From the NCBI GenBank assembly GCA_963840885.1, contig CAWJAN010000003.1, positions 1 through 50,340 on the forward strand: DNA of 50,340 nt, read 5' to 3'. Positions 15,555 to 48,783 of the stretch are shown here, piece by piece (positions within the stretch are counted from its first letter, which is position 1; every line of letters begins with the position of its first letter). The position numbers were made by a program, and so were the translations under genes. Under the pieces are notes generated by a model. The model was not told where the DNA came from. It was given only the letters and a program-made list of their open reading frames with translations, and did not search any database. The stretch is from an uncultured bacterium. Its GTDB lineage: Bacteria > Patescibacteriota > Minisyncoccia > Phycocordibacterales > GWA1-40-21.

Positions 15555-16522
15555 TTAGTTTTATTATTCCACTTTTGAACGAAGAAGAAAATATTCCGCT
15601 CTTGTATAGCCGTCTACTAAAGGTGCTTCCTTCTTTGGATAAAACGCATGAACTTATCTTTATTGATGATGGTTCGCGTGACGGGTCTTTGGCAGTTTTA
15701 AAGAAACTGGGGGATAAAGATCGCACAATCCGCATTTTTTCCTTTAGACGAAATAGAGGGAAAGCTGAAGCGTTGACACTTGGCTTTCAAATGGCGAAAG
15801 GTAATATTATTGTAACCATGGATGCCGATCTTCAGGATATGCCCGAAGAAGTTGGGAAGCTGTTGAAAAAGCAGAAAGAAGGATATGATGTAGTTTCCGG
15901 ATGGAAGAAAGAACGGCACGATCCGATATATAAGACGATTGCCTCACGTGTCTTCAATCGAATCGTCGGGATTATGTTCGGCTTACGGCTTCATGACTAT
16001 AACTGCGGTCTAAAAGTGTATACGAAGGATGCGGCAAAGAGCTTGCGATTGTATGGGGGAATGTATCGATTTATTCCTCTTATGGCATATGAGCAGGGTT
16101 TCTCAGTAACCGAAGTTCCGGTTGAACATGCGAAGCGGCTTTATGGGAAGTCAAAATATGGATTTTCGAAGCTCTGGAAGGATCTTCCTGATCTCTTTAC
16201 TATGTTATTTTTGACTCGCTATGGAAAGAGGCCACTTCATTTCTTCGGGACTATAGGAAGTATTGCATTTGTAATTGGGATAAGTTTATTGCTCTATCTG
16301 ATGATATTGCAAACCTTTTATCATCAGGCTATCGGGAGACGCCCGCTTCTTTTCGGAAGTATTCTCCTCATCCTCAGCGGTCTCCAAATCGCATTTACCG
16401 GTTTTCTCGCGGATTTGATCATTAATGTTTTTCATAACCCACAACTGGAACGGGATCGTCTTCATTTTTATTTGAAATATGATAGTGATAAGGACGGCAG
16501 CGACGAGATTGTGGTGAAATGA
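15551..16522 (+). CDS. GT2 polyprenyl-phosphate glycosyltransferase (GtrB/ArnC/DPM1-like) with C-terminal TM helices
   Basis: MISFIIPLLNEEENIP, FIDDGSRDGS, TMDADLQD, YRFIP, two C-terminal TM helices. ATG 15551 overlaps the stop at 15552-15554. Confidence 0.85.
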   Translation: MISFIIPLLNEEENIPLLYSRLLKVLPSLDKTHELIFIDDGSRDGSLAVLKKLGDKDRTIRIFSFRRNRGKAEALTLGFQMAKGNIIVTMDADLQDMPEEVGKLLKKQKEGYDVVSGWKKERHDPIYKTIASRVFNRIVGIMFGLRLHDYNCGLKVYTKDAAKSLRLYGGMYRFIPLMAYEQGFSVTEVPVEHAKRLYGKSKYGFSKLWKDLPDLFTMLFLTRYGKRPLHFFGTIGSIAFVIGISLLLYLMILQTFYHQAIGRRPLLFGSILLILSGLQIAFTGFLADLIINVFHNPQLERDRLHFYLKYDSDKDGSDEIVVK

Positions 16523-16547
16523 GTATTAAGTATATAGTATTTAGTAT
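16522..16547 (+). repeat. AGTATWW heptamer array (26-mer AGTATTAAGTATATAGTATTTAGTAT)
   Basis: AGTAT recurs at a 7-nt period. The 26-mer is identical at 19801-19826 and near-identical at 17504-17536. The array starts on the last base of the stop codon. Confidence 0.9.
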
Positions 16548-16561
16548 AACAACTCTCTAGG

Positions 16562-16711
16562 TTTGTCATCCTGGCGCAGTCCAGGATCTCGGGGAACAGC
16601 AATGGACATTTTTAACCCTAAGGCTTGCAAGTCAAATGTACTTTAGGACTATCTGGTTAAAATAAAATACTGTTTGATTGACGAGATTCCGGACTTCGCC
16701 GGAATGACAAA
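16562..16711. mobile_element. 150-bp MITE-like element with 29-bp hairpin-bearing terminal inverted repeats (GTCAT...AATCTC family)
   Basis: Left end TTTGTCATCCTGGCGCAGTCCAGGATCTC. The reverse complement of the right end is TTTGTCATTCCGGCGAAGTCCGGAATCTC (24/29 identical). The mismatches at stem positions are compensatory. There is no ORF inside. Confidence 0.75.
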
Positions 16712-16722
16712 TAGCAACTAAC

Positions 16723-16935
16723 ATGAAAATTCAAGATATATTATTTTTCGCCATACTTTTATTCCTTCTTTTTAAACGAAAGAGTCAGTGGTTTGTTATT
16801 GGGGGGTTGGTTTGCCTGGCTGCATCAATTCCTCTCTTTGCTTTGAGGGTCTTCTTTACTGCTCAGCATTTGGTTTGGTATGCTGCCGGTTTCTTATTGG
16901 TTGCAATTGTTCTAAAATATAGAGAACTAGCATGA
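16723..16935 (+). CDS. small two-TM membrane protein
   Basis: 70-aa ORF, two hydrophobic helices, stop overlaps the next start (ATGA). Confidence 0.5.
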   Translation: MKIQDILFFAILLFLLFKRKSQWFVIGGLVCLAASIPLFALRVFFTAQHLVWYAAGFLLVAIVLKYRELA

Positions 16936-17501
16936 AAATCGGCATTGATATTTCCCAGATCGCTTATGAAGGAACCGGGGTAGGGAACCTTACCAGAAAA
17001 CTAGTTGAGAACTTAATTCTATTGGATACGGATAACGAATATATTCTCTTTTATTCATCTCTGAGGCGGAATTTCAATTTTCAAATTTCAAATTTCCAAT
17101 TAACACCAAACGCAAAAGTTAAAGAATTCAAGTTTCCACCAATATTCCTCGATTTTCTTTGGAATAAACTACATATTTTTCCTATTGAGTGGTTGATTGG
17201 GAAAGTTGACGTATTCCTCTCATCGGATTGGACTCAGCCCCCTACAAAGGCGAAAAAGGCTACAATTCTCTATGACCTCATTGTATATAAATATCCGAAG
17301 GAAACTCACGACCAGTTTAAGTTTGACTTTAAACGGCTTCGTATTATCCCAAATATCGTCGCTTCTCAAAAGAGACGATTGCATTGGGTGAAAAAAGAAT
17401 GTGATACTATTATCTGTATATCAGAAGCAACGAAAAAGGACGCGATGGAGGTTTTAGGAATATCGGAGAATAAGTTGAAGGTGGTTTATCCGGGATTTTA
17501 A
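16932..17501 (+). CDS. glycosyltransferase family 1, N-terminal domain only (truncated or split)
   Basis: MKIGIDISQIAYEGTGVGN ... ISEATKKDAMEVLGISENKLKVVYPGF then stop. The paralogue at 17947 continues past its equivalent VTYPGI into the EX7E domain. That half is missing here, and the heptamer array begins 3 nt after the stop. Confidence 0.75.
   Translation: MKIGIDISQIAYEGTGVGNLTRKLVENLILLDTDNEYILFYSSLRRNFNFQISNFQLTPNAKVKEFKFPPIFLDFLWNKLHIFPIEWLIGKVDVFLSSDWTQPPTKAKKATILYDLIVYKYPKETHDQFKFDFKRLRIIPNIVASQKRRLHWVKKECDTIICISEATKKDAMEVLGISENKLKVVYPGF
17070..17104 (+). repeat. AATTTCA heptamer tract (5 units) inside a CDS
   Basis: aatttca attttca aatttca aatttcc aattaac, translated NFNFQISNFQL. 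Confidence 0.9.
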
Positions 17502-17503
17502 AT

Positions 17504-17536
17504 AGTATTAAGTATATAGTATCTAGTATTTAGTAT
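17504..17536 (+). repeat. AGTATWW heptamer array, left arm of the cassette around the four-helix-bundle gene
   Basis: agtatta agtatat agtatct agtattt agtat, directly abutting ATG 17537. Confidence 0.9.
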
Positions 17537-17908
17537 ATGCAGAGAAGAATTAGCTCATTTACTGATTTAGTGTGTTGGCAGGAGGGACATAAACTAGTCT
17601 TGGATGTCTACAAAATAACCACAAATTTTCCTAAAACAGAAATTTATTGCTTAATTGACCAGATGAGGAGATGTGTGATTTCTATAACAAGTAACATAGC
17701 GGAGGGGTTCTCCAGGAGAAGTAAAAAGGAGAAAGACCAATTTTACTATATGGCATTGGGGTCATTAACTGAATTGCAAAATCAATTACTTGTTGCTAGA
17801 GATTTGAAGTATCTAACACCACAAGAGTTCTCTCGAATAGCAAGCCACACCGTACTCGTATCAAAACTCATTAGGGGGCTTTTAAAAAGTTCTGCTAATC
17901 ATTCTTGA
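17537..17908 (+). CDS. four-helix-bundle protein (23S rRNA intervening-sequence protein / Avd family, PF05635/TIGR02436-like)
   Basis: FTDLVCWQEGHKLVLDVYKITTNFPKTEIYCLIDQMRRCVISITSNIAEGFSRRSKKEKDQFYYMALGSLTELQNQL matches the family signature (W-Q, FP..E, Q.RR...SI..NIAEG, GS..EL). Confidence 0.9.
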   Translation: MQRRISSFTDLVCWQEGHKLVLDVYKITTNFPKTEIYCLIDQMRRCVISITSNIAEGFSRRSKKEKDQFYYMALGSLTELQNQLLVARDLKYLTPQEFSRIASHTVLVSKLIRGLLKSSANHS

Positions 17909-17942
17909 TACTAAATACTAAATACTAAATACTTTATACTAT
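17908..17942 (-). repeat. ATACTAA heptamer array, right arm (inverted with respect to 17504-17536)
   Basis: atactaa x3, atacttt, atactat. The reverse complement is AGTATWW units. The array begins on the last base of the TGA stop and ends 4 nt before ATG 17947. Confidence 0.9.
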
Positions 17943-17946
17943 TGTT

Positions 17947-19062
17947 ATGATTATCGGAATAGATGGAAATGAAGCGAATGTGAAACGGAGGGTTGGTATT
18001 AGCGAATATGCGTACCAGCTTCTTTTGCAGTTTGTTAAGATCAGAACGAACGAAAAGTTTGTGATTTATTTGAAAGATCCTCCGTTGGAGGATTTTCCTG
18101 CCGAGACATTTTGGTGGAAGTATCAGATCGTGAAACCGAGGAAGTTATGGACGCAAATTGGATTGCCGTTACAGCTTTTTCTCGAACCCAGAAGACCAAA
18201 CGTATTTTTTACCCCATCTCATTATGCGCCGAGATTTTCTCCTATGCCATGCGCCATCGCGATCATGGATGTCGCGTATTTCCGTTTTCCGGAATATTTC
18301 GATAAAAGAGATTTATACCAACTTACTAAATGGACTGCATACTCGGTAAAAAGAGCAAAGCGCATATTTACCATTAGTCAGGCCACGAAAAATGATATAA
18401 TTGAGCAGTACAAAGTTCCTGAAGAAAGTGTCATCGTAACGTATCCCGGAATAAAAAAGAATTTGGATAAAACACAAGAAACTATGACAGACGTACGAGA
18501 AAAATATAAGATTTCGAAACAATACATTCTCTTTGTGGGAACTCTCCAGCCGAGAAAAAATATCGTCAGGCTCGTTGAGGCATTCGCTAAGATATTGGAG
18601 GATAAACAGCAGGAAGACTTAAATCTGGTCGTCGTCGGTAAAAAGGGATGGCTCTACGAAAAAATTCTTGAATCTCCCGGAAATTTAAAAATACTTGATA
18701 AAGTAAAATTTTTAGATTTCGTCCCCGATGAAGATCTCCCGTCGCTCTATAAGGATGCCTTGTGTTATGTCTTGCCGAGCTTGTATGAAGGATTTGGCTT
18801 ACCTGTCCTGGAAGCGATGAAATATGGATGTCCCGTTATTACGAGTAACGTCAGCAGTCTGCCCGAGGCAGGCGGTGACGCAGCTCTCTATGTCGATCCG
18901 TTGAATACGGATGATATTGCAGAAAAAATTAAAGAAGTTATCGATAGTAAGAAGCTACGTGATGACATGCGTGAAAAAGGATATGCCCATCTGAAAAAAT
19001 TCTCCTGGGAAAAGACTGCGAGAGAAACATTGAGGATTTTGGAAGAGATAGCAGCTAAATAG
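17947..19062 (+). CDS. glycosyltransferase family 1 (GT4), full length
   Basis: Intact 371 aa. ILFVGTLQPRKN and LPSLYEGFGLPVLEAMKYGCPVITS (EX7E region). Confidence 0.9.
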   Translation: MIIGIDGNEANVKRRVGISEYAYQLLLQFVKIRTNEKFVIYLKDPPLEDFPAETFWWKYQIVKPRKLWTQIGLPLQLFLEPRRPNVFFTPSHYAPRFSPMPCAIAIMDVAYFRFPEYFDKRDLYQLTKWTAYSVKRAKRIFTISQATKNDIIEQYKVPEESVIVTYPGIKKNLDKTQETMTDVREKYKISKQYILFVGTLQPRKNIVRLVEAFAKILEDKQQEDLNLVVVGKKGWLYEKILESPGNLKILDKVKFLDFVPDEDLPSLYKDALCYVLPSLYEGFGLPVLEAMKYGCPVITSNVSSLPEAGGDAALYVDPLNTDDIAEKIKEVIDSKKLRDDMREKGYAHLKKFSWEKTARETLRILEEIAAK

Positions 19063-19101: not shown

Positions 19102-19186
19102 ATTGTTACATTGCTTCATTGTTTCATTGCTATAAAGAGCCATCTAATTGCATTAACAATGGAACAATCGAACAATGAAGCAATCG
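19102..19186. repeat. CATTG/CAATG octamer-periodic palindromic element, copy 1
   Basis: Left arm attgttac attgcttc attgtttc attgctat. Right arm aacaatgg aacaatcg aacaatga agcaatcg. It ends 8 nt before ATG 19194. Confidence 0.9.
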
Positions 19187-19793: not shown

Positions 19794-19828
19794 GGTATAT
19801 AGTATTAAGTATATAGTATTTAGTATTT
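19794..19828 (+). repeat. AGTATWW heptamer array containing the same 26-mer as 16522-16547
   Basis: ggtatat agtatta agtatat agtattt agtattt. Positions 19801-19826 are identical to 16522-16547. Confidence 0.9.
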
Positions 19829-24307: not shown

Positions 24308-24384
24308 ATTGTTCCATTGTTCGATTGCTCCATTGCTGAAGTAACAATTGAACAATGAGCGTAGCGATAGCAATGAAACAATGG
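24308..24384. repeat. CATTG/CAATG octamer-periodic palindromic element, copy 2
   Basis: attgttcc attgttcg attgctcc attgctga, loop, aacaattg aacaatga [gcgtagcgat] agcaatga aacaatgg. The last unit contains ATG 24381. Confidence 0.9.
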
Positions 24385-25973
24385 TGATGAATAACATTAA
24401 GCTTAAACAAAAGCTAGAAATAACGATTTTAGCTGTCATAATAATCCTGGCATTTACTGTCCGTTTATATCGGTTTAATAATCCGATAGCGGATTGGCAC
24501 GCGTGGAGACAGGGAGATACCTCGGCAGTTTCGCGGAACTTTGTGGCCCATGGGTTTGACCTGCTCCATCCTCAGTACGATGATATCTCCAATGTTCAAA
24601 CCGGCGTGGATAATCCCAAGGGATATCGGTTTTTGGAGTTCCCTCTGTATAACCTTTTCCAAGCTGGAGGATTTGTCATTTTCGGCGTATTTACTCTCGA
24701 AGAATGGGGCCGGCTCGTAACTATTCTGATCTCGATGCTCGCGATTGTCTTCGTATATCTTATCGGGAAACGCTATGCGAACAGTACGGTTGGTTTTATT
24801 TCGGCTGCATTTTTCGCATTTGTCCCGTATAACATTTACTATGATAGGACTATTCTGCCTGATCCTGCGATGACTATGGCAATTCTTGGGGGTATCTATT
24901 TTTTTGGAAAATGGATAGATACAATTTCAAATTTCAAATTTCAAATTTCAAATGAAAAAGGGAAAGGCAACAATGAAAATAAATCTCGTAAAGGTACGAA
25001 TTTTTCCAAAGCGTCCCACCACAACGGCGATAACTTTTCCAAAGTGTCAGAAGTGAGCGTTCAGAGTTTTTCATTCTTACTATTAGCAATTATTTTTACT
25101 GCGTGCGCGTTGCTCTTTAAACCATTCGCGATATTCTTTGTTTTGCCGATGGTGTATCTGGCGTATAAGCGGTTCGGGTGGAAGATGATTCTCAGATGGG
25201 AACTATGGGTATTTACCATACTATCAGTCGCCCCTCTGGCATGGTGGCGGTTGTGGATGCAGCAATATCCAGAAGGAATACCTTCAAATACATGGCTTTT
25301 TAATGGCGGGAATGTGCGGTTTACGAGGTCATATTTCAGATGGGTCTTCGGTTTACGTATTGGAGGCTTAATTTCAGGGTGGTTTGGGTTACTTGTCCTC
25401 GCGATTGGGTTTATCAAACGGCCAAAAACGGACATGCTCTTTTTTTATTCTTTTGCACTCTCGGCATTAGTGTATATATTAGTAATTGCGCGCGGAAACT
25501 TACAGCATGATTATTATCAAATTATCATTATCCCTACCATTGCTTTCTTTTTCGGTCTTGGCGGTGATTATTTGTTGCATGCGAGGTCGAAGCTACTCCC
25601 GAATCTCTCGGTTGGGATAGGAATATTTGCTGCTTGTGTGCTGGTTGGATGGTGGATTGCCTGGTACCAAGTCCGGGACTACTTCAATATCAACAATCCG
25701 TCGCTTATCGTTGCAGGTAAAGCCGTAGACAGGCTTACTCCGAAGAATGCGCTGGTTATTGCTCCGTTAGATGGCGATACGACGTTTCTTTATCAAACGA
25801 AGCGTAAGGGGTGGCCGAGCTTTGAACATTCCCTCCCTGATCTGATACAATTAGGGGCAGATTATCTGGTTTTAGCGAACCCGCAGCCAAAAGATTACGA
25901 TATTGGGAAAACATATAAAATTGTGTCAGCAAATAAAGATTATATCTTGTTTGATTTGCACAAAAAGCCCTGA
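24381..25973 (+). CDS. GT-C glycosyltransferase, ArnT/PMT_2 (GT39/GT83-like), with a low-complexity loop insertion
   Basis: RLYRFNNPIADWHAWRQGDT, then many TM helices. The upstream part of track ORF 24348 is repeat-encoded, so the start is placed at ATG 24381 (alternative 24387). Confidence 0.75.
   Translation: MVMNNIKLKQKLEITILAVIIILAFTVRLYRFNNPIADWHAWRQGDTSAVSRNFVAHGFDLLHPQYDDISNVQTGVDNPKGYRFLEFPLYNLFQAGGFVIFGVFTLEEWGRLVTILISMLAIVFVYLIGKRYANSTVGFISAAFFAFVPYNIYYDRTILPDPAMTMAILGGIYFFGKWIDTISNFKFQISNEKGKGNNENKSRKGTNFSKASHHNGDNFSKVSEVSVQSFSFLLLAIIFTACALLFKPFAIFFVLPMVYLAYKRFGWKMILRWELWVFTILSVAPLAWWRLWMQQYPEGIPSNTWLFNGGNVRFTRSYFRWVFGLRIGGLISGWFGLLVLAIGFIKRPKTDMLFFYSFALSALVYILVIARGNLQHDYYQIIIIPTIAFFFGLGGDYLLHARSKLLPNLSVGIGIFAACVLVGWWIAWYQVRDYFNINNPSLIVAGKAVDRLTPKNALVIAPLDGDTTFLYQTKRKGWPSFEHSLPDLIQLGADYLVLANPQPKDYDIGKTYKIVSANKDYILFDLHKKP
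24923..24950 (+). repeat. AATTTCA heptamer tract (4 exact units) inside a CDS
   Basis: aatttca x4 followed by aatg, translated ISNFKFQISN. It opens a roughly 50-aa low-complexity insert. Confidence 0.9.
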
Positions 25974-26047: not shown

Positions 26048-26152
26048 TGCTAACGCTCACTATTGTTCGCTCATTGCTCCATTGTTGTTTTAACAATTGA
26101 ACAATGAAACGAGTCCGACTCGGTGAAACAATTGAACAATTCTTACATTCCA
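26048..26152. repeat. CATTG/CAATG octamer-periodic palindromic element, copy 3
   Basis: The left arm has attgttcc, attgctaa, attgttcg, attgctcc, attgttgt. The right arm is aacaattg aacaatga aac[gagtccgactcg]gtg aaacaattg aacaattc. Confidence 0.9.
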
Positions 26153-27414: not shown

Positions 27415-27500
27415 ATTGTTCCATTGTTCGATTGTTTCATTGTTAAAGCGAAGCATAAAAAATCGCCTAGCAATTGAGCAATGAAGCAATGTAGCAATTG
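27415..27500. repeat. CATTG/CAATG octamer-periodic palindromic element, copy 4 (cleanest)
   Basis: attgttcc attgttcg attgtttc attgttaa, 22-nt spacer, agcaattg agcaatga agcaatgt agcaattg. Confidence 0.9.
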
Positions 27501-28523: not shown

Positions 28524-28630
28524 GTCATTGCGAATCAGTCCGCAGACTGGTGCGGCAATCTTATTAGGTTACATTTAATCTGGTTTTCACGAGATTGCCG
28601 CGTCGCTCGGATGCCGCTCCTCGCAATGAC
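28524..28630. mobile_element. 107-bp MITE-like element of the GTCATT...AATCT hairpin-TIR family
   Basis: GTCATTGCGA-N18-GCGGCAATCT at 28524-28561. Its inverted copy AGATTGCCGC-N19-TCGCAATGAC ends at 28630. No ORF is needed to explain it. Confidence 0.7.
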
Positions 28631-28654
28631 GAAAATTACGCTATAATAATAACC

Positions 28655-29787
28655 ATGAGAGTAGGAATTGATGCGAGGTTGTGGGATGAGACGGGGATTG
28701 GGAGATATATTCGGAATTTAGTAAAGTATCTTCAGGAAGTTGATCAAGCGAATGAGTATGTTTTGTTCGTATTAGGTAAAGATTATGGGAATGTCAAAGC
28801 ACTAATTTCTAATAAAAAATGGAAAGTAGTGATAGCTGATGTTCGGTGGCATAGTTTTGCAGAACAGATCAAGCTTTCAGGCATTTTATATAAGGAGAAG
28901 CTTGATCTGATGCACTTTCCCTATTATTCTTACCCCATTTTATATAGCGGAAAGTTTGTTGCCACTATTCATGACCTCATCCTTCTCCATTTTCCCACAG
29001 GAAAAGCGTCGAATTTGCCCCATGTTTTTTATAAAGCAAAACTATTCGCGTATAAATTGCTTACGAGGAACGCGGTGTTGCATGCTCAGCAAATTATTGC
29101 TGTATCAAATGCCACGAAACAGGAAATTGTAGATCACTACCATATTCCTAAAGATAAAATTACCGTAACATACGAAGGGGTAGATGAGCGCATGGATGGA
29201 CAACAGAATAAGCTTGTTGATACTAGATACAAAATACTACATACTAAATACTTTCTTTACGTCGGGAACGCCTATCCTCACAAAAATCTTGAAAGACTTA
29301 TCCAAGCGTTTGGGATATTTAAAAAAGATAATGGTTCAGATGTAAAGCTTATCTTAGTTGGTAAGAATAACTATTTTTATAAGCGGTTGGAGAAAACAAT
29401 TGACGCGTATAGTCTGCGCTCTGATATATTGGTTTTCCACGACGTTAACGATGAAGCGCTTGGGTACTTATATAAAAATGCGATTGCAACGGTTATCCCA
29501 TCGCTGATGGAGGGGTTCGGTCTTCCGGCTCTTGAGGCTATGAGTCAGAAATGCCTGGTAGTCGCGTCTGATATTCCATCAATCCGTGAAATTTGCGGAA
29601 TAACGCGTTATACTTTGACCTAAAAGTGATAAAGGATATTGCCGGCACGCTTTCTATGGTATATAAGAAGAGGAATGATTTTTCGGCACAAAAAACAGAT
29701 GGGGTGAAAAAAACATCTCAATTTTCCTGGAAGAAAATGGCTGCAGAAACAAAACAAGTTTATGAAAGTAGCGTTCGTATACGATAG
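28655..29787 (+). CDS. glycosyltransferase family 1 (GT4); one frameshift near 29600
   Basis: MRVGIDARLWDETGIGRYIRN, FLYVGNAYPHKN, PSLMEGFGLPALEAM. The C-terminus continues as NNALYFDL...SWKKMAAETKQVY (ORF 29593..29787). The first 20 codons of track ORF 28595 are repeat-encoded. Confidence 0.85.
29221..29255 (-). repeat. TACTNNN heptamer tract (5 units, AGTAT family in reverse orientation) inside a CDS
   Basis: tactaga tacaaaa tactaca tactaaa tactttc, translated DTRYKILHTKYF. Confidence 0.85.
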
Positions 29788-33121: not shown

Positions 33122-35065
33122 ATGGATGGGTTTAAGAAGATAAGTTTGGGGCAAAATGATTTCGCTCAACAGAAATCACCTCCCTCCAGAAAACCTATGG
33201 CTCGCAAAAAATCACGAAGGAAATTTCTCTATATTGCTTGTGCAATTATTCTCGTTGTTATCCTCTTTACTGTATTCGGAGTGGTACTTCCCGCAAAAGC
33301 CGCGTACTCACATGCTAAATTAGCTATTGCTCAGGCGAAAATTGCGGCAACAGATTTGAAAACGCAGAATATTGCGGCAGCATCAGATGATTTAACGAAG
33401 ACACAGGATGCATTGCTTGTCACCAAAAAGGATGTCGATGGGATGTGGTATATGCAATTTATCCCTATAGCAAATTGGTATTATGGGGATGTATACCATC
33501 TTTTAAATGCCGGAAATTATGGAATTAATGCAGGTCAGATTGCGATTGATGCCGTAAAACCATATGCTGATTTATTAGGTCTCAAAGGTCAGAAGTTTAC
33601 CGGGGGTTCGGCTCAGGATAGAATCCAAACTGCTGTTTTAACAATGGGAAAGATTACCCCTCGAATCAACGATGTTGAAGCACAGCTCGTATTAGTAAAG
33701 AAAGAGATCGATCAGGTTGACCCAAATCATTATCCGTCTCTTTTCGGCGGTGGTAAAATAAAAAGCCAGCTGACGAGCGTTCGGACATACACGGACGAAG
33801 GCGTTGCATTTATTGAGCAAGCGAAGCCATTGATACAAGTTTTGCCATCAGCGCTCGGTGAGCCTACGCAACAGCATTACTTAGTTGTATTCCAAAACGA
33901 TAAAGAACGACGTCCGACGGGTGGATTCCTCACCGCGTATTCTATTTTCAGTGTTAATAAAGGGATAATTCATGTTGATTCCTCAAACGATATTTATACT
34001 TTGGATGATACTATCTCCAATAAGCCAAATGCCCCGAGGCCGATTCTCCAATATCTTCCGAAAGTGTACCAATTGAACCTCCGCGATACGAATCTCTCGC
34101 CAGATTTCGTAACATCCATGGATGCCTTCAATGCGATGTATAAAACTGCTCCGGGATATCAGAAAGTAGATGGAATTATAGCTGTTGATACACAGGCACT
34201 TGTCGCAGCTATGAATATACTTGGAGATATAGATGCGGGTGGTGAAACGTTTACCACCAAAACAGACCCACGATGTAATTGCCCGGAAGTTATTTACTCG
34301 CTGGAATCAACTGCAGACAGGCCGGTAAATTATGTGAGGGGTGATAGAAAAAGCGTTATCGGAGAACTGATGTACGCTATTATGAATAAAGCATTTACGT
34401 CGTCTCCCCGGTTGTATTGGGGGCCTCTTTTCCAGGCGATGATTACCGAGACGACCCAAAAGCATATTCTGTTTGATCTTTATAATACTGATGCGCAAAC
34501 AGGACTTGAGTCGTTGAATGCAAGCGGAAGAATTGCTCAGAATGTAAAAGGTGACTATCTCCACATTAATGAAGCGAATTTCGGAGGAGCGAAGTCGAAT
34601 ATGTATGTCAGTGAAGCAGTTGACCAAAAGTATGACGTCGCGAGTGATGGTACCATCACAAAGACAGTTACTGTGCATTATAAAAATCCGTTTCCACCAT
34701 CCGACTGTAATTTGGAACATGGAAATCTTTGTCTCAATGCGCCATTACGAAATTGGGTTCGCGTCTATGTACCGCAGGGAAGCCAACTCGTTACTAGCAG
34801 CGGCTCTCAGGTAAAAGTCACGTCATATGATGAATTGGGTAAAACTGTTTTTGAAGGATTCCTTATTATTAATCCTCTCGGTACTGCGACATATACCGTA
34901 GCATATAAATTGCCGTTTAAGCTGGCAGATAATTCCCCATTGCCTCTTCTTATCCAGAAACAGCCTGGCGTAGATAGCCAGGATACCACCATATCTGTCG
35001 GAAGCAATCAGCTGGATTCATTTTCCCTGGCGTCAGATAAGCAGTTGATGCTGCAGCTTAAGTAA
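33122..35065 (+). CDS. DUF4012-domain envelope protein
   Basis: N-terminal TM helix, then HYLVVFQNDKERRPTGGFLTAYS, typical of DUF4012. Track ORF 33101 starts at a TTG that overlaps the -10 box. Confidence 0.75.
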   Translation: MDGFKKISLGQNDFAQQKSPPSRKPMARKKSRRKFLYIACAIILVVILFTVFGVVLPAKAAYSHAKLAIAQAKIAATDLKTQNIAAASDDLTKTQDALLVTKKDVDGMWYMQFIPIANWYYGDVYHLLNAGNYGINAGQIAIDAVKPYADLLGLKGQKFTGGSAQDRIQTAVLTMGKITPRINDVEAQLVLVKKEIDQVDPNHYPSLFGGGKIKSQLTSVRTYTDEGVAFIEQAKPLIQVLPSALGEPTQQHYLVVFQNDKERRPTGGFLTAYSIFSVNKGIIHVDSSNDIYTLDDTISNKPNAPRPILQYLPKVYQLNLRDTNLSPDFVTSMDAFNAMYKTAPGYQKVDGIIAVDTQALVAAMNILGDIDAGGETFTTKTDPRCNCPEVIYSLESTADRPVNYVRGDRKSVIGELMYAIMNKAFTSSPRLYWGPLFQAMITETTQKHILFDLYNTDAQTGLESLNASGRIAQNVKGDYLHINEANFGGAKSNMYVSEAVDQKYDVASDGTITKTVTVHYKNPFPPSDCNLEHGNLCLNAPLRNWVRVYVPQGSQLVTSSGSQVKVTSYDELGKTVFEGFLIINPLGTATYTVAYKLPFKLADNSPLPLLIQKQPGVDSQDTTISVGSNQLDSFSLASDKQLMLQLK

Positions 35066-35189
35066 ATACTCAAATAATACTAATACTCAAATACCCAAAG
35101 ATTTACTCAAGAATACCCAAATGAAATCAGCAGACCACTCGTTCATTAGTGTATTTGTATATTAGATTATTTGGATATTAGTATATTAT

Positions 35190-36292: not shown

Positions 36293-37606
36293 ATGGATAA
36301 TTTGATGGAGAAAATTACAGCATTAGCGAAGCGGAGGGGATTTATTTATCCCGGCTCCGAGATTTATGGCGGACTGGCCGGAACATGGGATTATGGTCCA
36401 TTGGGCACTGAACTCAAGCGCAACATCAAAAATATCTGGTGGAAGAACGTGGTTCTTGAACGCGATGACATGGTTGGAATCGATGCCGCAATCATGATGA
36501 ATCCCCGCGCCTGGGAAGCATCAGGTCATGTCGAGGCATTCACAGATCCTCTTGTCGAATGTAAAATTTGTCATTTGCGGTTTCGATCGGATAAACCTGA
36601 CGAAATAAAGCAGCATGTTCAGACCCATAAAGGACAGGTTGTCGAATGGACAGAGCCTCAGCAATTCAACCTTTTAGTTAAGGCCTACTTAGGTGTTCTA
36701 GAGGGGAAACAAGCAGAGTTATATTTGCGTGGCGAAATTACAAATGGTGTCCACGTCAATTTTAAAAACGTGGTAAGTTCTTCCAGAGTCAAGATTCCCT
36801 TTGGTATTGCTCAAATCGGAAAAGCATTCAGGAACGAGATTACTCCGGGGAACTTTGTTTTCAGATCCAGAGAATTTGAGCAAATGGAAACTCAGTTTTA
36901 TGTTAAACCGGTAGACATAGAAGGTAAAAAGTGGTTTGAGTATTGGAAGCAAAACCGACTTGAATGGTTCCTCTCTCTCGGCATCCGAAAAGAAAATATC
37001 CGTTTTAGAGATCATGCAGATGACGAACGGGCGCATTATGCGCGAGCAGCAACAGATTTGGAGTACAACGCTCCATGGGGTTGGCAAGAATTTATGGGAA
37101 TTCATCACAGGGGTGATTGGGATTTAACCAGGCACCAAAAGTATAGCGGAAAGCCTATGACATATAATGATCCGGAATCTGGAGAAGAATATATACCGTG
37201 GGATATTGAGACATCTGCCGGGGTTGATAGATCATTATTATTCTTTTTGGTGGATGCATATAATGAAGAGGGAAAGCGTATCGTTTTAAAACTCCATCCA
37301 AAACTGGCACCGGTTAAGGCGGCGGTATTTCCCTTGTTAGCCAACAAACCGGAATTAACGAAAGTCGCGGAAAAAGTATATCGGGATTTGAAAAAGAATA
37401 TCGATGGTGTGGTAGCCTGGGATGACCGGGGAAATATCGGAAAGCGATATTTATCGCAGGATGAGATAGGAACGCCATATTGTATTACCATTGATTTCCA
37501 GACACTGGAAGATCAAACTGTCACACTGAGAGACCGGGATACTACCAAGCAGGAACGGGTAAAAATTGAAGACCTTCTTACTCTACTTCAGAAGAAACTA
37601 CAGTAA
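36293..37606 (+). CDS. glyQS: glycine--tRNA ligase (dimeric class II GlyRS)
   Basis: MEKITALAKRRGFIYPGSEIYGGLAGTWDYGPLG, FRNEITPGNFVFRSREFEQME, YIPWDIETSAGVDR. Start is at ATG 36293, because track TTG 36278 lies inside the terminator U tract. Confidence 0.9.
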   Translation: MDNLMEKITALAKRRGFIYPGSEIYGGLAGTWDYGPLGTELKRNIKNIWWKNVVLERDDMVGIDAAIMMNPRAWEASGHVEAFTDPLVECKICHLRFRSDKPDEIKQHVQTHKGQVVEWTEPQQFNLLVKAYLGVLEGKQAELYLRGEITNGVHVNFKNVVSSSRVKIPFGIAQIGKAFRNEITPGNFVFRSREFEQMETQFYVKPVDIEGKKWFEYWKQNRLEWFLSLGIRKENIRFRDHADDERAHYARAATDLEYNAPWGWQEFMGIHHRGDWDLTRHQKYSGKPMTYNDPESGEEYIPWDIETSAGVDRSLLFFLVDAYNEEGKRIVLKLHPKLAPVKAAVFPLLANKPELTKVAEKVYRDLKKNIDGVVAWDDRGNIGKRYLSQDEIGTPYCITIDFQTLEDQTVTLRDRDTTKQERVKIEDLLTLLQKKLQ

Positions 37607-37618
37607 GGCCCTTCTACA

Positions 37619-37784
37619 GGCCGGAAAGGATTTGCAATCCTTTCTGTATGTTTTGTAAATCGCACAAATGTCATTTCAGTAAACTTTGTGCCACGTTCAC
37701 TGACAATACTAAACTCGTGTAATGCATTCATATTTGGTGGATATTACAAAACGTTTCGGAATGGTTTACAAAACCATTCCGGCT
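37619..37784 (+). repeat. double-hairpin intergenic element (family B), long copy
   Basis: Hairpin 1 is gaaaggat-ttgca-atcctttc (37624-37644). A conserved gtaaatcgcacaa..tcatttcag core follows. Then AACGTTTCGG and hairpin 2, cggaatggttt-aca-aaaccattccg (37757-37781). Confidence 0.85.
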
Positions 37785-38608: not shown

Positions 38609-38644
38609 TGTTGATATGCTAATCTAAGATAGGCTATTCCCCGG

Positions 38645-38774
38645 GCCGGAAAGGATTTGTAATCCTTTCTGTATAGTTAGTAAATCGCATAACATATCAT
38701 TTCAGCAAAGTTTCGGAATGGTTTGCACCACAAGGGCACTAACTTCGCGGAAGTGTCGCAAAACCATTCCGGCT
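38645..38774 (+). repeat. double-hairpin intergenic element (family B), second copy, same orientation
   Basis: gccggaaaggatttgtaatcctttctgtat..gtaaatcgcataa..tcatttcag ... gtttcggaatggttt[46-nt expanded loop]aaaccattccggct. Confidence 0.85.
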
Positions 38775-40260: not shown

Positions 40261-41151
40261 CCGAGTTCCATACAAGTGTACTTTTACAGGAAGCAATTGC
40301 AAGTCTGAATATTTCAGAAGGGAAGCGATATATTGATGCCACGCTTGGAGGAGGAGGGCACACGAGGGCGATCCTTGAGAAGGGTGGTCAAGTGTTGGGG
40401 ATTGACCAAGATGAGGAAGCGATTGAACATGTTCGGGTAGAATTCAAAATTCAAAATTCAAAATTCAAAGTTGGTAAAGAATTAATTTTGATGTATGGAA
40501 ACTTTAAAGATATAAGAGAGATCGCAGAGAAAAATGGATTTGGAAAAGTGGATGGGATTCTGTTTGACATTGGTATTTCCAGTCATCATGTCGATACGCC
40601 GGAGAGAGGATTTAGTTTTCAGACAGATGCACCGCTGGACATGAGGATGGATAGAAGTCTAGGTGTTACTGCAGCAGACTTGATAAATGGGTTGTGGAGA
40701 GAAGAATTAATCTCGTTATTTATGAAGCTGGGGGAAGAGTATCGTGCGAAAAAAAATAACGGAAGCAATAATACGCGCGAGAGAAGTTAAGCAAATTGAA
40801 ACGACAAAGGAATTAGCTACGATCATTGAAAAAGCTGTTGGGGGACACGGGGTAGGAATACATCCTGCGACGAAAGTGTTTCAGGCATTAAGGATTGCTG
40901 TGAACGATGAATTGAACAGCTTAGAAGAGGGATTAAGCGGTGCAATTGATCTTTTACAGTCAAAGGGAAGGATCGTAGTTATATCATTTCACTCTCTGGA
41001 AGATAGGATTGTGAAGAATGCATTCTTAGAATTTGAAAATAAAGGGTTAGGAATAATTCTTACCAAGAAGCCTATGGTACCAAGCGGTGACGAACAGAAG
41101 CGAAACAAAAGAAGCAGAAGTGCGAAGATGAGAATTTTTGAGAGAGGGTAA
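40257..41151 (+). CDS. rsmH: 16S rRNA (cytosine1402-N4)-methyltransferase RsmH; one frameshift at A8 run 40749-40756
   Basis: HTSVLLQEAI, DATLGGGGHT, FDIGISSHHVD, ERGFSF, then after the A run KITEAIIRAR...ATKVFQALRIAVNDEL...ISFHSLEDRIVK. Confidence 0.9.
40441..40468 (+). repeat. AATTCAA heptamer tract (4 exact units) inside rsmH
   Basis: aattcaa x4, translated EFKIQNSKFK, in the variable linker between the SAM-binding GID motif and the YGNF strand. Confidence 0.9.
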
Positions 41152-41290
41152 AGCGTTAAGGGTAAAGGGAAAAGTGAAATGTTTAAGGTCTAATTTCTAA
41201 TGCCTAAAGAAAACTACAGTGGCAAAGTTTATTAGATTTTAAAGCATTTGACATTTTATTAGAAATTAGGAATTAGACATTTGGCATTAC
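41145..41290. repeat. intergenic spacer built from 7-nt periodic degenerate repeats in inverted arrangement
   Basis: agggtaa agcgtta agggtaa agggaaa agtgaaa tgtttaa ggtctaa tttctaa tgcctaa (41145-41207), then ttagaaa ttaggaa ttagaca tttggca (41259-41286). Confidence 0.85.
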
Positions 41291-41320: not shown

Positions 41321-41608
41321 ATGAATAGAACAAAGATTTTTTTTGCATTGTTATTTGGTATCGTGGCTTTGTCGGCTGTTATTCAGGTATCGGCCTCAAA
41401 TTTTCTGTCGACTGATGGAATAGATTTGGCTCAAGTTCAAAACAGAATCGAAGCGTTAAAAAAAGAAAATATTCTTTTGAAACAAAAGATTTATGCCAGT
41501 GCTTCCTTGACAGAAATCGCGTCTGAAGCTGCGACTCTTGGATTTATTCCAAGTAATGACACCGTGTTTATCGATACCTCCTCGCAGCCCATCGCTATTA
41601 AACCATGA
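41321..41608 (+). CDS. ftsL: FtsL-like cell division protein
   Basis: 95 aa, single N-terminal TM helix, coiled-coil segment NRIEALKKENILLKQKI. It lies between rsmH and ftsI, and its stop overlaps the ftsI start. Confidence 0.7.
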   Translation: MNRTKIFFALLFGIVALSAVIQVSASNFLSTDGIDLAQVQNRIEALKKENILLKQKIYASASLTEIASEAATLGFIPSNDTVFIDTSSQPIAIKP

Positions 41609-43293
41609 CATGGCGTTACCACCTTATTCTGCTTTTCTTCGGTCTGGCATTCATGGCTATCACAGCAAAGCTCTTCTGGTGGCAGGTCGTAAAAGCTGAA
41701 GAGCTTTCAGATCTAGGTCAGGCACAGTACTCAAAAAATCTCCAAATAGAACCCATTCGGGGTGACATAAAAGCATCAGACGATTTTCCTCTCGCGACAA
41801 ATAAGCTATCATATCTTGTTTTCGCGAATCCGAAAGAAATTGGCGATAAAGAAGATACTGCAAATAAATTGGCACCCATTCTGGGCATGGACAGCGCGAC
41901 TATAAGCGGGAAGTTGACTCAAGATAAATTTTGGGTTCCGATAAAACCGAGTATCGATGAAGATACCAGAAAGACAATTGATGCGCTCCGTATACCTGGT
42001 GTTGGTTTTCAGGAGGAATATGGCAGGCTTTATACTGAAGCGTCAACAGCTGCACAACTTCTTGGATTTGTTGGTAAGGATACATTCGGAAATGATAAAG
42101 GGTATTTTGGCTTAGAAGGGTATTACGATAGGCAATTACGTGGCAGAGCAGGACAGGCAGTTATCATTAACGATGCATTTGGGCGTCCTGTTTTATCGAA
42201 ATTTGATGGTAGTTCCGGAGAGTTAGACGGCCGGTCATTTCTGACGCTCCATATTGATCGTGCTATCCAGTTCCTCGTTGAATCGAAATTAAAGGCAGGA
42301 ATTAATAAATACGGTGCTGAAAGCGGTATGGCTGCGGTCATGGACCCGGCAACCGGGGGTATACTGGCTATGTCGGCATTTCCATCATTTGATCCGAGAA
42401 GCTATGGAAATTACGATGTTTCACTGTATAAAAATCCCTTTATCACGGATACGTACGAACCAGGATCTACGTTTAAGCCTCTTGTTATGGCGGCAGGAAT
42501 GGAGTCTCATCTCATTACACCTACTTCGACCTGTCCTGTTTGCGGGGGTCCGGTTTCAAGTCGGAGGATACGATATCCATACTTGGAATGATCAGTATTT
42601 TGCTAACACCGATATGACGCACATCATGATTGACTCCAGACAATACCGGTATGGTGTATATTGCCCAAAGATTAGGCCTGGATCGTATGTTGTCGTATCT
42701 GGGTAAATATGGGATAGGAGATTCGACGGGGATAGATTTAGAAGGTGAGTTGGCACCGGGATTAAAACGCAACCGGATTGGTATCCGATTGATCTGGCGA
42801 CCGCGGGATTCGGGTCAGGGAATTTCTGTCACCCCCATAGAGCTTCTGGACGCATTTGCTACTATCGCGAATAAGGGTCAGCGTATGGAACCTCATGTCG
42901 TGTCGGAGATTACCACTCCTGATGGTCAGCAGATAACTATCCCGCCGAAAGTACTGGACCAGCCAATTGCTGAAGGAACTGCGAAAGTCATGACTGAAAT
43001 CTTAGTTCACGCAGTCGATGAGGGAGAGGCGAAGTTTGCCAGACTGGCAAAGGATATCGAATAGCCGGAAAGACCGGTACAGCGTCAATTCCACTGAACG
43101 GACATTATGATCCACGAAAACGATTGCTTCATTTATCGGATTCGCTCCAGCCGATAATCCAAAGTTTATTATGTTGGTTATCTTAAACAAGCCCACTGCT
43201 TCAATTTATGGCGCCGAAACCGCTGCGCCCATATTCTTCGACATCGCGAAAAACTTGCTGGTCTATTATGGAATTCCACCGAGTGGAGATTAA
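41605..43293 (+). CDS. ftsI: class B penicillin-binding protein (FtsI/PBP2-type transpeptidase); at least five frameshifts
   Basis: N-terminal TM helix and dimerisation domain, then STFKP (SxxK). SDN is readable after a shift near 42640, GFGQGISVTP after a compensated pair at about 42770/42815, and AGKTGTA after a shift near 43055. The C-terminus YYGIPPSGD ends at 43291-43293. Confidence 0.85.
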
Positions 43294-43297
43294 TGTC

Positions 43298-43702
43298 TGT
43301 CATTCCGGCTTGTCCGGAATCTCATCGACTTACACGAGGATTGATGGATTGAGTTGGTGGTAAAGATCCTTGAAGGTTGGATTCATCAGTTGATATGAGT
43401 TCTAACTTTATCTTTTCGTGACATATTTTTGATTTGTTTCTCTCTGATGATTGCTTGTGATGATCCTTCTATTGCCTCGTAATATATTAAGTTGTGTAGG
43501 TTATATTTCTGAGTAAATCCCTTTATAATCTCCAAGCTTGTGTTCTTGGAGTTCTTCGAAGTAGCATTATTCGTGACACCAGTGTATAAACGGGGTTGTT
43601 GCTCTTGTTACCCATAATGTAGACAAACATGTACTTGCTAGTCATACCGATTCAATTTACAGTCTACCAGATTGAAGAGATTCCGGACAAGCCGGAATGA
43701 CA
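43298..43702. mobile_element. 405-bp element with perfect 26-bp terminal inverted repeats enclosing a degenerate GIY-YIG nuclease gene
   Basis: TGTCATTCCGGCTTGTCCGGAATCTC at 43298-43323 is the exact reverse complement of 43677-43702. Each arm is itself a hairpin. Confidence 0.8.
43387..43645 (-). pseudogene. GIY-YIG (COG2827/URI-type) nuclease gene, spread over three frames
   Basis: The minus strand reads MTSKYMFVYIMGNKSNN, then YTGVTNN, LLRRT, EHK, and KGFTQKYNLHNLIYYEAIEGSSQAIIREKQIKNMSRKDK in different frames. Confidence 0.7.
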
Positions 43703-44320: not shown

Positions 44321-44464
44321 AGTAGCATCATAAATGTTTTTCTCACTCGGCGCAATCGGCAAACTGGACAAAGTCCGAATCTTATAGTACAATACTTTCG
44401 TGCTCGTGTCTTGTGATTGTTTGCAGACGCGAGCATATTTTGGTTTACGTTTCACTGTCTGTAG

Positions 44465-44526
44465 CCGGAGCACATTTGCAATGTGCTACGAAACGTTTCG
44501 GACCAGGTTGCAAACCTGCTCCGGCC
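44465..44526 (+). repeat. double-hairpin intergenic element (family B), minimal copy
   Basis: ccgg agcacat-ttgca-atgtgct acgAAACGTTTCGG accaggtt-gca-aacctgct CCGGcc. It has the same loops and linker as 37619-37784, with different stem sequences. Confidence 0.8.
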
Positions 44527-47288: not shown

Positions 47289-48704
47289 ATGAAAATAAAG
47301 AACGTACATTTTTTCGGAATTAAAGGGGTCGGTATGACGCCTTTGGCGATTATCGCAAAAGAGGCAGGGTTTCATGTGACCGGTTGTGATATAAAAGATG
47401 AATTCATAACGGATGCCGCTTTGCGGGAGGTCGGGATTAATCCTGCTGAAGGATTTTCTCCTAAGCACGTTGAAGATATAGATTTGCTTATCGCCACTGG
47501 CGCGCATAAGGGATTTGAAAACCCGGAGGTTCAGGCAGCTGTCGAAAAGAATATCCCGTTCTTTATGCAAGGTGAAGCCGTTGGGGCATTTATGGAGGGG
47601 AAAATCTTTAATAGGAAGCTAAAAGGGATATCGGTCGCGGGATGTCACGGAAAAACCACGACGACTGCTATGCTGGCAACAATCTTTTCTGAGGCAGGGC
47701 TTGATCCTTCATATATTGTAGGGACAAGTGATATGCGGCCATTGGGATTGCCGGGACATTACGGGAAAGGTGAATATTTCATCGCAGAAGCGGATGAGTA
47801 CGCGACTGAACCGAACGAATTAAAAACTCCGAAATTCCTTTGGCAGTATCCGAAATACGCAATTATTACAAATGTAGAATTTGACCATCCGGATGTCTAT
47901 GGATCCATCGAAGAAGTACGAGATGCGTATCTCTTTTTCGCAGCGAATGTCGGAAAGGATGGGGCACTTATCGTAAATGGCGATGATGACGAGACGACGA
48001 AAGCATTAGAAGGGTATAAGCGGAAGAGAATCAGTTTCGGTAAGAAGCCCGATAATGATTATGTTTTACAGAAGGTTTCTGTGTCTGACGGTCAGACGAT
48101 CTTTTTCGCGGCGTCACGATACAAAGATTTGGGGAAGTTTGTCCTAAATGTATTTGGAGAACACAATGCCCTTAATGCGCTTGCCGCAGCGATTGTTGCG
48201 CTCGAAGCAGACGTTCCGATTGATGACATTAAAAAAGGACTTTTTCTGTTTGGCGGGACGAGGCGTCGCATGGAATTTGTCGGAAAAACGCCCCATGGCG
48301 CAGTTATCTATGATGACTATGCACATCATCCTACGGAAATCCGGAAAACACTCTCCGGTCTTAAGAATCAGTTTCCTGATAAGAAAATTCTTACGATTTT
48401 TCAGCCTCATACCTATTCACGAACAAAATTATTGTTTGATCAATTTTCTACTGCATTTGAAGATATTGACGAAGCAATAGTAACTGAAATCTTTCCATCT
48501 GCTCGTGAGGAATTTGATGGATCGGTATCTTCGAATGGCTTAGTTGAAGCTATGAATACACACAAAAATAATGCTCATTTTTTGAGAAGTTTTGATGATG
48601 TGATACAATACCTCAGTGAAAAAAAGCCCGGTCCCAACTGGATAATCGTCACCATGGGCGCTGGCGATATATATAGAGTTGGAGATCGGCTATTAGAAGG
48701 GTGA
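47289..48704 (+). CDS. murC: UDP-N-acetylmuramate--L-alanine ligase
   Basis: VHFFGIKGVGMTPLA, VAGCHGKTTTTAM, NVEFDHPD, DDYAHHPTEI. Intact 471 aa. Confidence 0.9.
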   Translation: MKIKNVHFFGIKGVGMTPLAIIAKEAGFHVTGCDIKDEFITDAALREVGINPAEGFSPKHVEDIDLLIATGAHKGFENPEVQAAVEKNIPFFMQGEAVGAFMEGKIFNRKLKGISVAGCHGKTTTTAMLATIFSEAGLDPSYIVGTSDMRPLGLPGHYGKGEYFIAEADEYATEPNELKTPKFLWQYPKYAIITNVEFDHPDVYGSIEEVRDAYLFFAANVGKDGALIVNGDDDETTKALEGYKRKRISFGKKPDNDYVLQKVSVSDGQTIFFAASRYKDLGKFVLNVFGEHNALNALAAAIVALEADVPIDDIKKGLFLFGGTRRRMEFVGKTPHGAVIYDDYAHHPTEIRKTLSGLKNQFPDKKILTIFQPHTYSRTKLLFDQFSTAFEDIDEAIVTEIFPSAREEFDGSVSSNGLVEAMNTHKNNAHFLRSFDDVIQYLSEKKPGPNWIIVTMGAGDIYRVGDRLLEG

Positions 48705-48783
48705 AGGGTAAAGGGGGAAGCGTAAAGTGCAAGCTGCGGCTTTATTCTTAACGCTATACCCTTAACGCTAAACGCTTATTTTT
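48704..48783. repeat. intergenic spacer of 7-nt periodic repeats (AAGGGTA family) in inverted arrangement
   Basis: aagggta aaggggg aagcgta aagtgca, then taacgct ataccct taacgct aaacgct. It shares the 13-mer AGCGTTAAGGGTA (reverse orientation, 48757-48769) with 41152-41164. Confidence 0.85.

Follow-up and report, generated by a model that had tools for sequence, protein, structure and literature searches.

What kind of element encloses a single small gene between inverted arrays of a heptanucleotide and places it between two glycosyltransferase (GT) genes? The question is raised by a 50,340-nucleotide stretch of contig CAWJAN010000003.1 from an uncultured member of the Patescibacteriota (assembly GCA_963840885.1), here called the window. 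In this stretch, a gene of the four-helix-bundle or 'S23p' family, named after intervening sequences (IVSs) of 23S rRNA, forms a compact cassette together with its flanking arrays (Table 1). An initial annotation, made from the letters of the DNA, had taken it for a cassette that landed in, or recombined with, a GT gene, and had pointed to the Avd accessory protein of diversity-generating retroelements (DGRs) as a relative. Our analysis leads to another placement. By its anatomy the cassette is grouped with the S23p-bearing IVSs, although it lies outside rRNA, and we consider it somewhat probable (about 0.55) that it is an IVS-type hairpin element residing in an mRNA operon. Comparison with related sequences places the cassette between two GT genes, both intact and co-oriented, that otherwise lie no more than 11 nt apart.

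The two arms of the inverted repeat are 36 nt long and 92% complementary and enclose the open reading frame (ORF) of the four-helix-bundle gene. Directly before its ATG stand the units agtatta agtatat agtatct agtattt agtat, and overlapping its TGA stand three copies of atactaa followed by atacttt and atactat. Tandem Repeats Finder returned a period of 7 for both arms, with 5.3 copies in the left and 4.9 in the right one, and the predicted RNA fold of positions 17480-17965 pairs both arrays in one long stem with the ORF in the loop. Arms and ORF together make up a unit of 443 bp. The inverted heptamer arrays initially described at the ATG and the TGA were thus confirmed at their positions. Consensus scans for a promoter or terminator belonging to the cassette itself gave no more sites than shuffled sequences did, a comparison of the filled site with the empty site in relatives revealed no duplicated target bases, and no transposase domain was found in the cassette, the four-helix bundle being its sole ORF. 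Of the features of a transposable element, either an insertion sequence or a miniature inverted-repeat element, inverted repeats are present, while target duplication and an encoded transposase domain are lacking.

The translation of ORF 17537-17908 contains the motifs DQMRRCVISITSNIAEG and GSLTEL, and the family signature noticed initially in this 372-nt frame was borne out by matches to PF05635 (23S_rRNA_IVP in Pfam; E = 3e-35, 120.9 bits against a cut-off of 33.8) and to TIGR02436 ('four helix bundle protein' in NCBIfam; 111.5 bits against a cut-off of 24). The sole relative by sequence in the PDB is Xcc0516 (2GSC). An AlphaFold model, computed from an alignment of database homologues, reached a pLDDT of 93.8 and consists of four helices. 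Its best structural match was again Xcc0516 (TM 0.87-0.95, 33-35% identity), with BT_0352 (2RLD) as a further match and bAvd ranking after both. Xcc0516 and BT_0352, both filed under 'S23 ribosomal protein family', are the best matches in sequence and structure; the two crystal entries contain five chains each and Xcc0516 is described as a homopentamer. No phage homologues of the protein were found in our search, PADLOC gave no match that would link it to a defence system, and in domain-model searches the conserved motif (Q.RR...S..SNIAEG, GS..E) fitted no known nuclease or recombinase. The basic four-helix-bundle protein most plausibly binds nucleic acid. To our knowledge, the 'S23p/IVS protein' family comprises thousands of members and has been without a known function since 1993, and we know of no binding or catalytic activity for PF05635/TIGR02436 proteins.

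Is the bracket of inverted arrays peculiar to this locus? We surveyed 101 loci from genomes and metagenomes, designated here by L numbers, and tested 90 distinct family genes from many phyla, each with 130-nt flanks to both sides; 117 other genes of the same loci served as controls. A flanking inverted repeat was called when it scored above the 99th percentile of shuffled flanks. Such inverted arrays flank 53 of the 90 family genes (59%) compared with 2 of the 117 controls (<2%), corresponding to an odds ratio of 82 (Fisher p = 2.5e-22). Among 72 significant flank arrays, 60 have a period of 7 and 10 a period of 8; the median copy number per arm is ~4.5. The inverted-array bracket is a trait of the four-helix-bundle gene family. 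This answers the check proposed with the initial annotation, which was to look for inverted heptamer arrays at other family copies, with the addition that the units are genome-specific. Of 83 control genes examined in related loci, 15 had an array in at least one flank. A scan of the 101 loci for 23S rRNA motifs gave one match of one motif (in L090), and Rfam detected no rRNA in L090 or in the window.

While period and arm complementarity are kept, the unit sequence changes from genome to genome, with GGCAAGR, GTGAARC, CAGTTGR, GGTGGTC, CAGGGGC, GGGGACT, GAATTAT, GTAGTAA and AGTATTA among the variants. The arms around the gene read (AGGGTGT)n / (ACACCCT)n in Calothrix brevissima, (TAGGGAG)8 / (CTCCCTA)5 in Nostoc edaphicum, (GGTTYAA)n / (AACCTTR)n in Riemerella anatipestifer and (GGGGACT)n / (CCCCAGT)n in L101; in Trichormus variabilis, (ATTCAGA)n stands upstream and only a short remnant downstream. 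We considered whether the heptamers serve to place a stop triplet in every frame (7 mod 3 = 1). This holds for the arms in the window but fails for GC-rich, stop-less units (L106, L080, L101), and the idea was dropped. In seven loci (L001, L034, L038, L076, L093, L096, L101), further arrays or hairpins built of the same unit as the cassette, but ORF-less, are found in the vicinity. Both neighbouring genes are co-oriented with the four-helix-bundle gene in 56 of 71 cassettes and both are antisense in 2 of 71, with a median gap of 46 nt on each side. The rare antisense placement is seen in L115, the Nostoc edaphicum plasmid pNe_5 (NZ_CP054697.1, 259376-259744), where the gene lies on the opposite strand between the genes for the beta and alpha subunits of ribonucleotide reductase.

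The junction at which the cassette resides, between a gene for the N-terminal half of a GT (N-half GT) and a full-length GT1 gene, exists in three states. It is empty in four relatives, with spacers of 4 nt in L025, 11 nt in L026 and 3 nt in L109 and with overlapping genes in L108; it holds an 81-nt ORF-less AGTATWW / WWATACT heptamer hairpin in L107, the closest relative by the N-half GT (74% identity); and it holds hairpin plus ORF in the window and in two other contigs of Levybacteria type, L004 (Levybacteria RIFCSPLOWO2_12_FULL_41_12) and L030. The empty site of L025 reads ...YPGL TAA cact ATG..., that is ...tatccaggattgTAAcactATGattattgg, and the filled site of the window ...tatccgggatttTAA, array, ORF, array, tgttATGattatcgg. 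In L004 and L030 the orthologous gene is likewise bounded by AGTAT-type arms that abut ATG and stop. The initial description of a discrete inserted cassette of the 23S IVS protein family was sound, the arrays bounding it exactly and relatives having an empty site. The proteins of the three filled junctions are near-reciprocal best hits of one another, diverged to about the same degree (64-67%) as the flanking genes (49-63%). Our favoured history is a single old insertion, after which the ORF or the entire hairpin was lost; it appears at least as likely as independent insertions, yet repeated insertion at this junction is possible, because by identity of the flanking genes the window is nearer to the empty-site locus L025 than to the cassette-bearing L004. 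That the AGTAT arm type has persisted despite such divergence speaks for a function of the arms.

The anatomy of the cassette can be compared with that of the 23S IVS of Coxiella burnetii, in which an S23p ORF lies in the loop of a 28-bp stem, formed by terminal inverted repeats and cleaved by RNase III; directly upstream of the S23p ATG stand GACAGAT heptamers, three or four in number and variable among strains (PMC4990558). S23p-bearing 23S IVSs are also found in Leptospira, Brucella and Xanthomonas (PMC4990558), ORFs for IVS proteins have been reported within 16S and 23S rRNA insertions of candidate phyla radiation (CPR) bacteria (PMC11270868), and others lie between cas genes, e.g. cmr3 and cmr2 (PMC3936711). 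The cassette shares with these IVSs the protein family (PF05635/TIGR02436), the position of the ORF in the loop of a long terminal-inverted-repeat stem (36 nt here), the tandem heptamers before the ATG, the character of a discrete sense-oriented insertion in a transcribed unit and the existence of ORF-less versions at the same sites. It differs in its host, which is the spacer between two protein-coding genes of an operon and not an rRNA helix, in its unit (AGTATWW instead of GACAGAT) and in that excision by RNase III would here follow by analogy. According to the reading as an IVS-type element, the cassette, without a promoter of its own, would be co-transcribed with the host operon and its two arms would pair within the transcript. 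RNase III may then cut the long duplex, as shown for the Coxiella IVS, and this cleavage would set the small mRNA free and part the cistrons on either side of it. The 7-nt period is probably the favoured slippage unit by which stems are lengthened, arm complementarity being kept by selection or conversion; slippage under selection for a long stem fits the strain-varying heptamer number in Coxiella.

Several points weigh against this reading. The survey sample is biased to sequences similar to the query, and 41% of the family genes have no detectable inverted repeat within 130 nt. Mismatches in the 53 arm pairs comprise 28 G.U and 39 A.C (p = 0.22); G.U is not in excess on the sense strand, and there is no sign that selection for pairing acts on the sense RNA and not on the DNA. 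Heptamer arrays also occur without a four-helix-bundle gene, even within coding regions, and may be a general mutational product rather than a component of the element. No Shine-Dalgarno sequence precedes the ATG, which directly adjoins the arm, so that translation from paired or cleaved RNA is unexplained, and the cleavage by RNase III is itself inferred by analogy with rRNA IVSs. In Coxiella, the authors judged that S23p is probably not made in vivo (PMC4990558).

Reports of heptamer repeat arrays go back to 1990, and an explanation for them is still lacking. Of the 186 GGGAATC arrays in Xanthomonas campestris, 70 belong to inverted pairs; arrays of GGGGA(C/T)T are known from Nostoc and heptanucleotide repeats from Calothrix, and in Beggiatoaceae TAACTGA arrays end 1 nt before start codons (PMC4692102, PMC4679880). 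Like the arms studied here, these are intergenic tandem 7-mers of about four genome-specific units, often forming convergent pairs capable of a stem-loop, close to a gene end or abutting a start codon. Unlike them, most enclose no four-helix-bundle gene in those genomes, and the papers treat them as G-quadruplex or regulatory repeats without mention of the family. In the published table, GGGAATC array #15 overlaps the start annotated for XCC0516, at a distance of 6 nt from bccP, and no inverted partner array is listed for this gene (PMC4692102 supplement). In the searchable, non-subscription full-text literature, the Coxiella paper (PMC4990558) was the only one to link the four-helix-bundle family with heptamers.

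In the window, (ATACNNN)4 is matched 10 times, at five sites, compared with 0.01 matches expected from shuffles, and three of the five sites of this AGTATWW/ATACTWW family are copies of the left arm, which recurs at 16522 and 19795 as a dispersed repeat of ~28 nt with its unit variants in identical order (Table 1). The array at 29220-29252 looks like an array-derived coding linker. Its unit that would yield an in-frame TAA reads AAA, and an orthologue of the host gene in L110 (58% identity) has (NNAATAC)6 at the matching hinge position, about 780-830, preceded by (AAAATTC)4 and encoding NTINTKYKILNTKYF. Another coding array, (AATTTCA)n at 17070-17101 inside the N-half GT ORF 16932-17501, encodes NFNFQISNFQ, an array-like peptide whose old age shows in its conservation as NFQFSIFNFQ among homologues. 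Further perfect heptamer arrays lie at 24923-24953 (AATTTCA, 4.4 copies) and 40441-40469 (AATTCAA, 4.1 copies). A second pattern, of 8-mers, has 6 matches at three of its four sites with 0 expected, the fourth (26073) having been found as a direct-repeat copy. Its hairpin at 19102-19186 stands between the GT1 and acetyltransferase genes, which overlap in relatives (L004, L025, L026, L108) and leave no spacer there. Neither in the window nor among the fetched loci was a four-helix-bundle gene flanked by ATTGTTYC 8-mers found, and at least nine array sites of the window are without such a gene.

Table 1. The cassette, its neighbours and related arrays and hairpins in the window
Feature	Position	Strand	Description
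Left hairpin arm	17501-17536	+	~five tandem AGTATWW; from last base of upstream TAA to ATG of four-helix-bundle gene
Four-helix-bundle gene	17537-17908	+	123 aa, pI 9.55; family TIGR02436 / PF05635 (23S rRNA intervening-sequence protein, 'S23p')
Right hairpin arm	17908-17943	+	~five tandem ATACTWW (reverse complement of left arm); overlaps TGA, ends 3 nt before next ATG
Upstream N-terminal GT4 (GT-B) half-domain gene	16932-17501	+	Conserved stand-alone gene, intact
Downstream full-length GT4/GT1 glycosyltransferase gene	17947-19062	+	Directly after N-half gene in cassette-less relatives
Solo left-arm array	16522-16548	+	AGTATTA AGTATAT AGTATTT AGTATA; overlaps TGA of GT2 gene; without right arm; 73% identical to 17499-17538 over 40 nt
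Second solo left-arm array	19795-19828	+	7 nt past stop of acetyltransferase gene; without right arm; 88% identical to 17499-17538 over 40 nt
Right-arm-type array	29220-29252	+	ATACTAG ATACAAA ATACTAC ATACTAA ATACT; in frame, inter-domain hinge of GT4 gene 28595-29623; encodes DTRYKILHTKYF
Intergenic 8-mer hairpin, ORF-less	19102-19186	.	Arms ATTGTTYC / GRAACAAT
Further 8-mer hairpins, ORF-less	24308-24384, 26073-26107, 27415-27498		ATTGTTYC / GRAACAAT
Intergenic 7-8-mer hairpins of other units	35064-35188, 41177-41288, 48696-48778		AAATACTC / ATTAGTAT; ATTAGAA; GAAGGGT / AACGCTA; all between co-directional genes

Four other explanations were weighed against the reading as an IVS-type element. 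The initial proposal of an insertion into, or recombination with, a full-length GT1 gene that thereby lost its C-terminal domain draws on the upstream ORF, whose 189-aa product matches the N-terminal GT4 domain only and ends with VVYPGF exactly at the inter-domain hinge, with the array starting right behind the stop; an array of the same family in the hinge of another GT4 gene of the window points the same way. Yet the protein has over two thousand homologues, and the best 119 of them (60-74% identity) all measure 176-229 aa, mostly 177-200. A short GT with the identical ...YPG(F/I/L) end occurs without a cassette in L022-L026, L108 and L109, followed in L022-L024 by a convergent enolase gene, and downstream of the cassette there is no C-terminal half, the next gene having an N-terminal domain of its own. 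Since the short GT ends at the same hinge without the cassette and its homologues are equally short, it is a conserved stand-alone gene, and we give the disruption of a GT1 gene practically no credence; both findings had been named with the initial annotation as ones that would refute it. The comparison suggested for finding an uninterrupted full-length GT1 in relatives thus returned short orthologues, with the same end whether or not a cassette follows, and a truncated, pseudogenised GT-B enzyme is ruled out as the orthologues are not full-length two-domain enzymes. Very improbable, too, is a remnant or component of a DGR in which the four-helix-bundle protein acts as Avd. It would account for the fold-level similarity to bAvd (PDB 4DWL), which is part of an RNA-protein complex, and to Avd in the structures of the DGR ribonucleoprotein (8UB7; TM ~0.75), and for weak matches to Avd models. 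These matches, however, stay below both curated cut-offs, with 32.1 bits against 80 for NF033474 and 31.2 bits against 40 for the Pfam model bAvd (PF22296), and sequence identity to bAvd is ~11%. No reverse transcriptase was found among the 20 window ORFs scanned with Pfam (19 of 138-738 aa and one of 70 aa), which include glycosyltransferases, an epimerase, a Mur ligase, MurA, a penicillin-binding protein (PBP) and a tRNA synthetase; no pair resembling template and variable repeats (TR/VR) and no long direct repeat pair was detected in the window; and phage homologues are missing from the search results. The absence of a reverse transcriptase and of a TR/VR pair from the window had been remarked on initially and is upheld by the Pfam scan and the repeat search. 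Of that first interpretation, then, the cassette stands, the gene disruption falls, and the link to Avd and DGRs holds at the level of the fold and not as membership.

The other two explanations turn on the arrays. In REP/REPIN-RAYT systems (REP, repetitive extragenic palindromic), a gene is flanked by inverted copies of the dispersed short repeat of its genome, and gene-less inverted-doublet hairpins are scattered intergenically; RAYTs are HUH/Y1 transposases and REPs imperfect palindromes. The cassette gene is similarly flanked by inverted copies of a repeat that is dispersed in the same genome (5 window sites), but it encodes a PF05635 four-helix bundle without a recognisable catalytic domain and its arms are tandem heptamers. 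On this model, the four-helix-bundle pentamer could be the trans-acting partner of the heptamer and octamer hairpins of the genome, a two-part arrangement that we regard as possible but unlikely. Equally tentative are its details, namely that the pentamer might recognise about five units per arm and spread or maintain the hairpins or control their (RNase-mediated) processing, and, no more firmly held, that the gene nested in a hairpin might represent an 'autonomous' copy with the ORF-less hairpins as its dependants. In its favour, the arms are built from the unit family of their own genome, as the ORF-less arrays and hairpins in the seven loci mentioned above illustrate, and the left arm is dispersed in the window with the unit variants in the same order. 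Units differ freely among genomes while periodicity and arm complementarity are kept, the median of ~4.5 units per arm is close to the five chains of the crystallised relatives including the homopentamer Xcc0516, bAvd, a relative by fold, is a component of an RNA-protein complex, and Xanthomonas and Nostoc combine four-helix-bundle genes with a strong over-representation of heptamer repeats (Rehm et al.). Against it, the family has no known binding or catalytic activity and its motif matches no known nuclease or recombinase; the 8-mer hairpins of the window are without a cognate gene in the window or the fetched loci; shared unit families can be explained by a genome-wide slippage bias together with vertical descent; and the junction cassette looks old and vertically inherited, not recently mobile. 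Polymerase slippage, the published proposal for the excess of heptamers (PMC4692102, PMC4679880), is also central to the last alternative, in which an ordinary resident gene has come to lie by chance between slippage-born, generic hairpins for RNA processing or stability, so that 'cassette' would be a misnomer. The nine or more other array sites without the gene, the 15 of 83 control genes with an array in at least one flank and the arrays embedded and conserved in coding sequence speak for it. We nevertheless doubt it: inverted pairs flank 59% of the family genes and <2% of the other genes in the same loci, the arms abut ATG and stop, arms and ORF are present or absent together at the junction with the exception of one hairpin-only state, and stem, heptamers and ORF also form a discrete insertion in rRNA genes.

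The link between the gene family and the heptamer arrays joins two puzzles, the function of the S23p protein and the heptamer repeats of bacteria, and makes both testable in cultivable Xanthomonas, Bacteroides, Nostoc and Riemerella. If the cassette is read as an IVS-type element, such elements are not specific to rRNA but also settle, in sense orientation, in mRNA operons; this is relevant to the punctuation of polycistronic transcripts in genomes whose spacers are very short, such as those of CPR bacteria. A two-part system of pentamer and hairpins, if true, would account at once for the role of the IVS protein that has been sought for 30 years, for the over-representation of heptamers (the cyanobacterial heptanucleotide repeats, GGGAATC in Xanthomonas, GGGGAYT in Nostoc) and for the occurrence of IVS-like insertions in rRNA and RNase P RNA as well as in operon spacers. 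The junction also corrects a tempting misreading, as the short GT is a genuine stand-alone gene and not the casualty of an insertion.

Some further observations concern other parts of the window. The GT4 gene 28595-29623 has a single frameshift at about 29598: past ...REICG, the homologous C-terminus (...FSWKKMAAETKQVYES...) runs on in another frame to 29786, and the gene is either a pseudogene or the product of an assembly error. The PBP gene at 41605-43293 is apparently split over several ORFs. ORF 41605-42591 covers the dimerisation domain and just the first 68 positions of the transpeptidase domain, and a later ORF, which runs to 43293 and ends ...GAETAAPIFFDIAKNLLVYYGIPP, is by eye a candidate continuation of the PBP; this suggests frameshifts or assembly errors. 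Dispersed repeats with GC-rich palindromes occur at 37606-37667 / 38631-38692, at 37745-37783 / 44487-44525 and at 44464-44525 (GGCCGGAAAGGATTTGCAATCCTTTC...; AAACGTTTCGG...). A 29-nt inverted repeat at 43298-43326 / 43674-43702 (97% complementary; TGTCATTCCGGCTTGTCCGGAATC...) encloses two overlapping ORF pieces on the minus strand, 43386-43535 and 43523-43645 (YIMGNKSNNPVYT...; ...KGFTQKYNLHNLIYYE...REKQIK), which by eye only, and unconfirmed, are a candidate small GIY-YIG protein with a frameshift. An ORF-less inverted repeat of the same type is present at 16565-16711.

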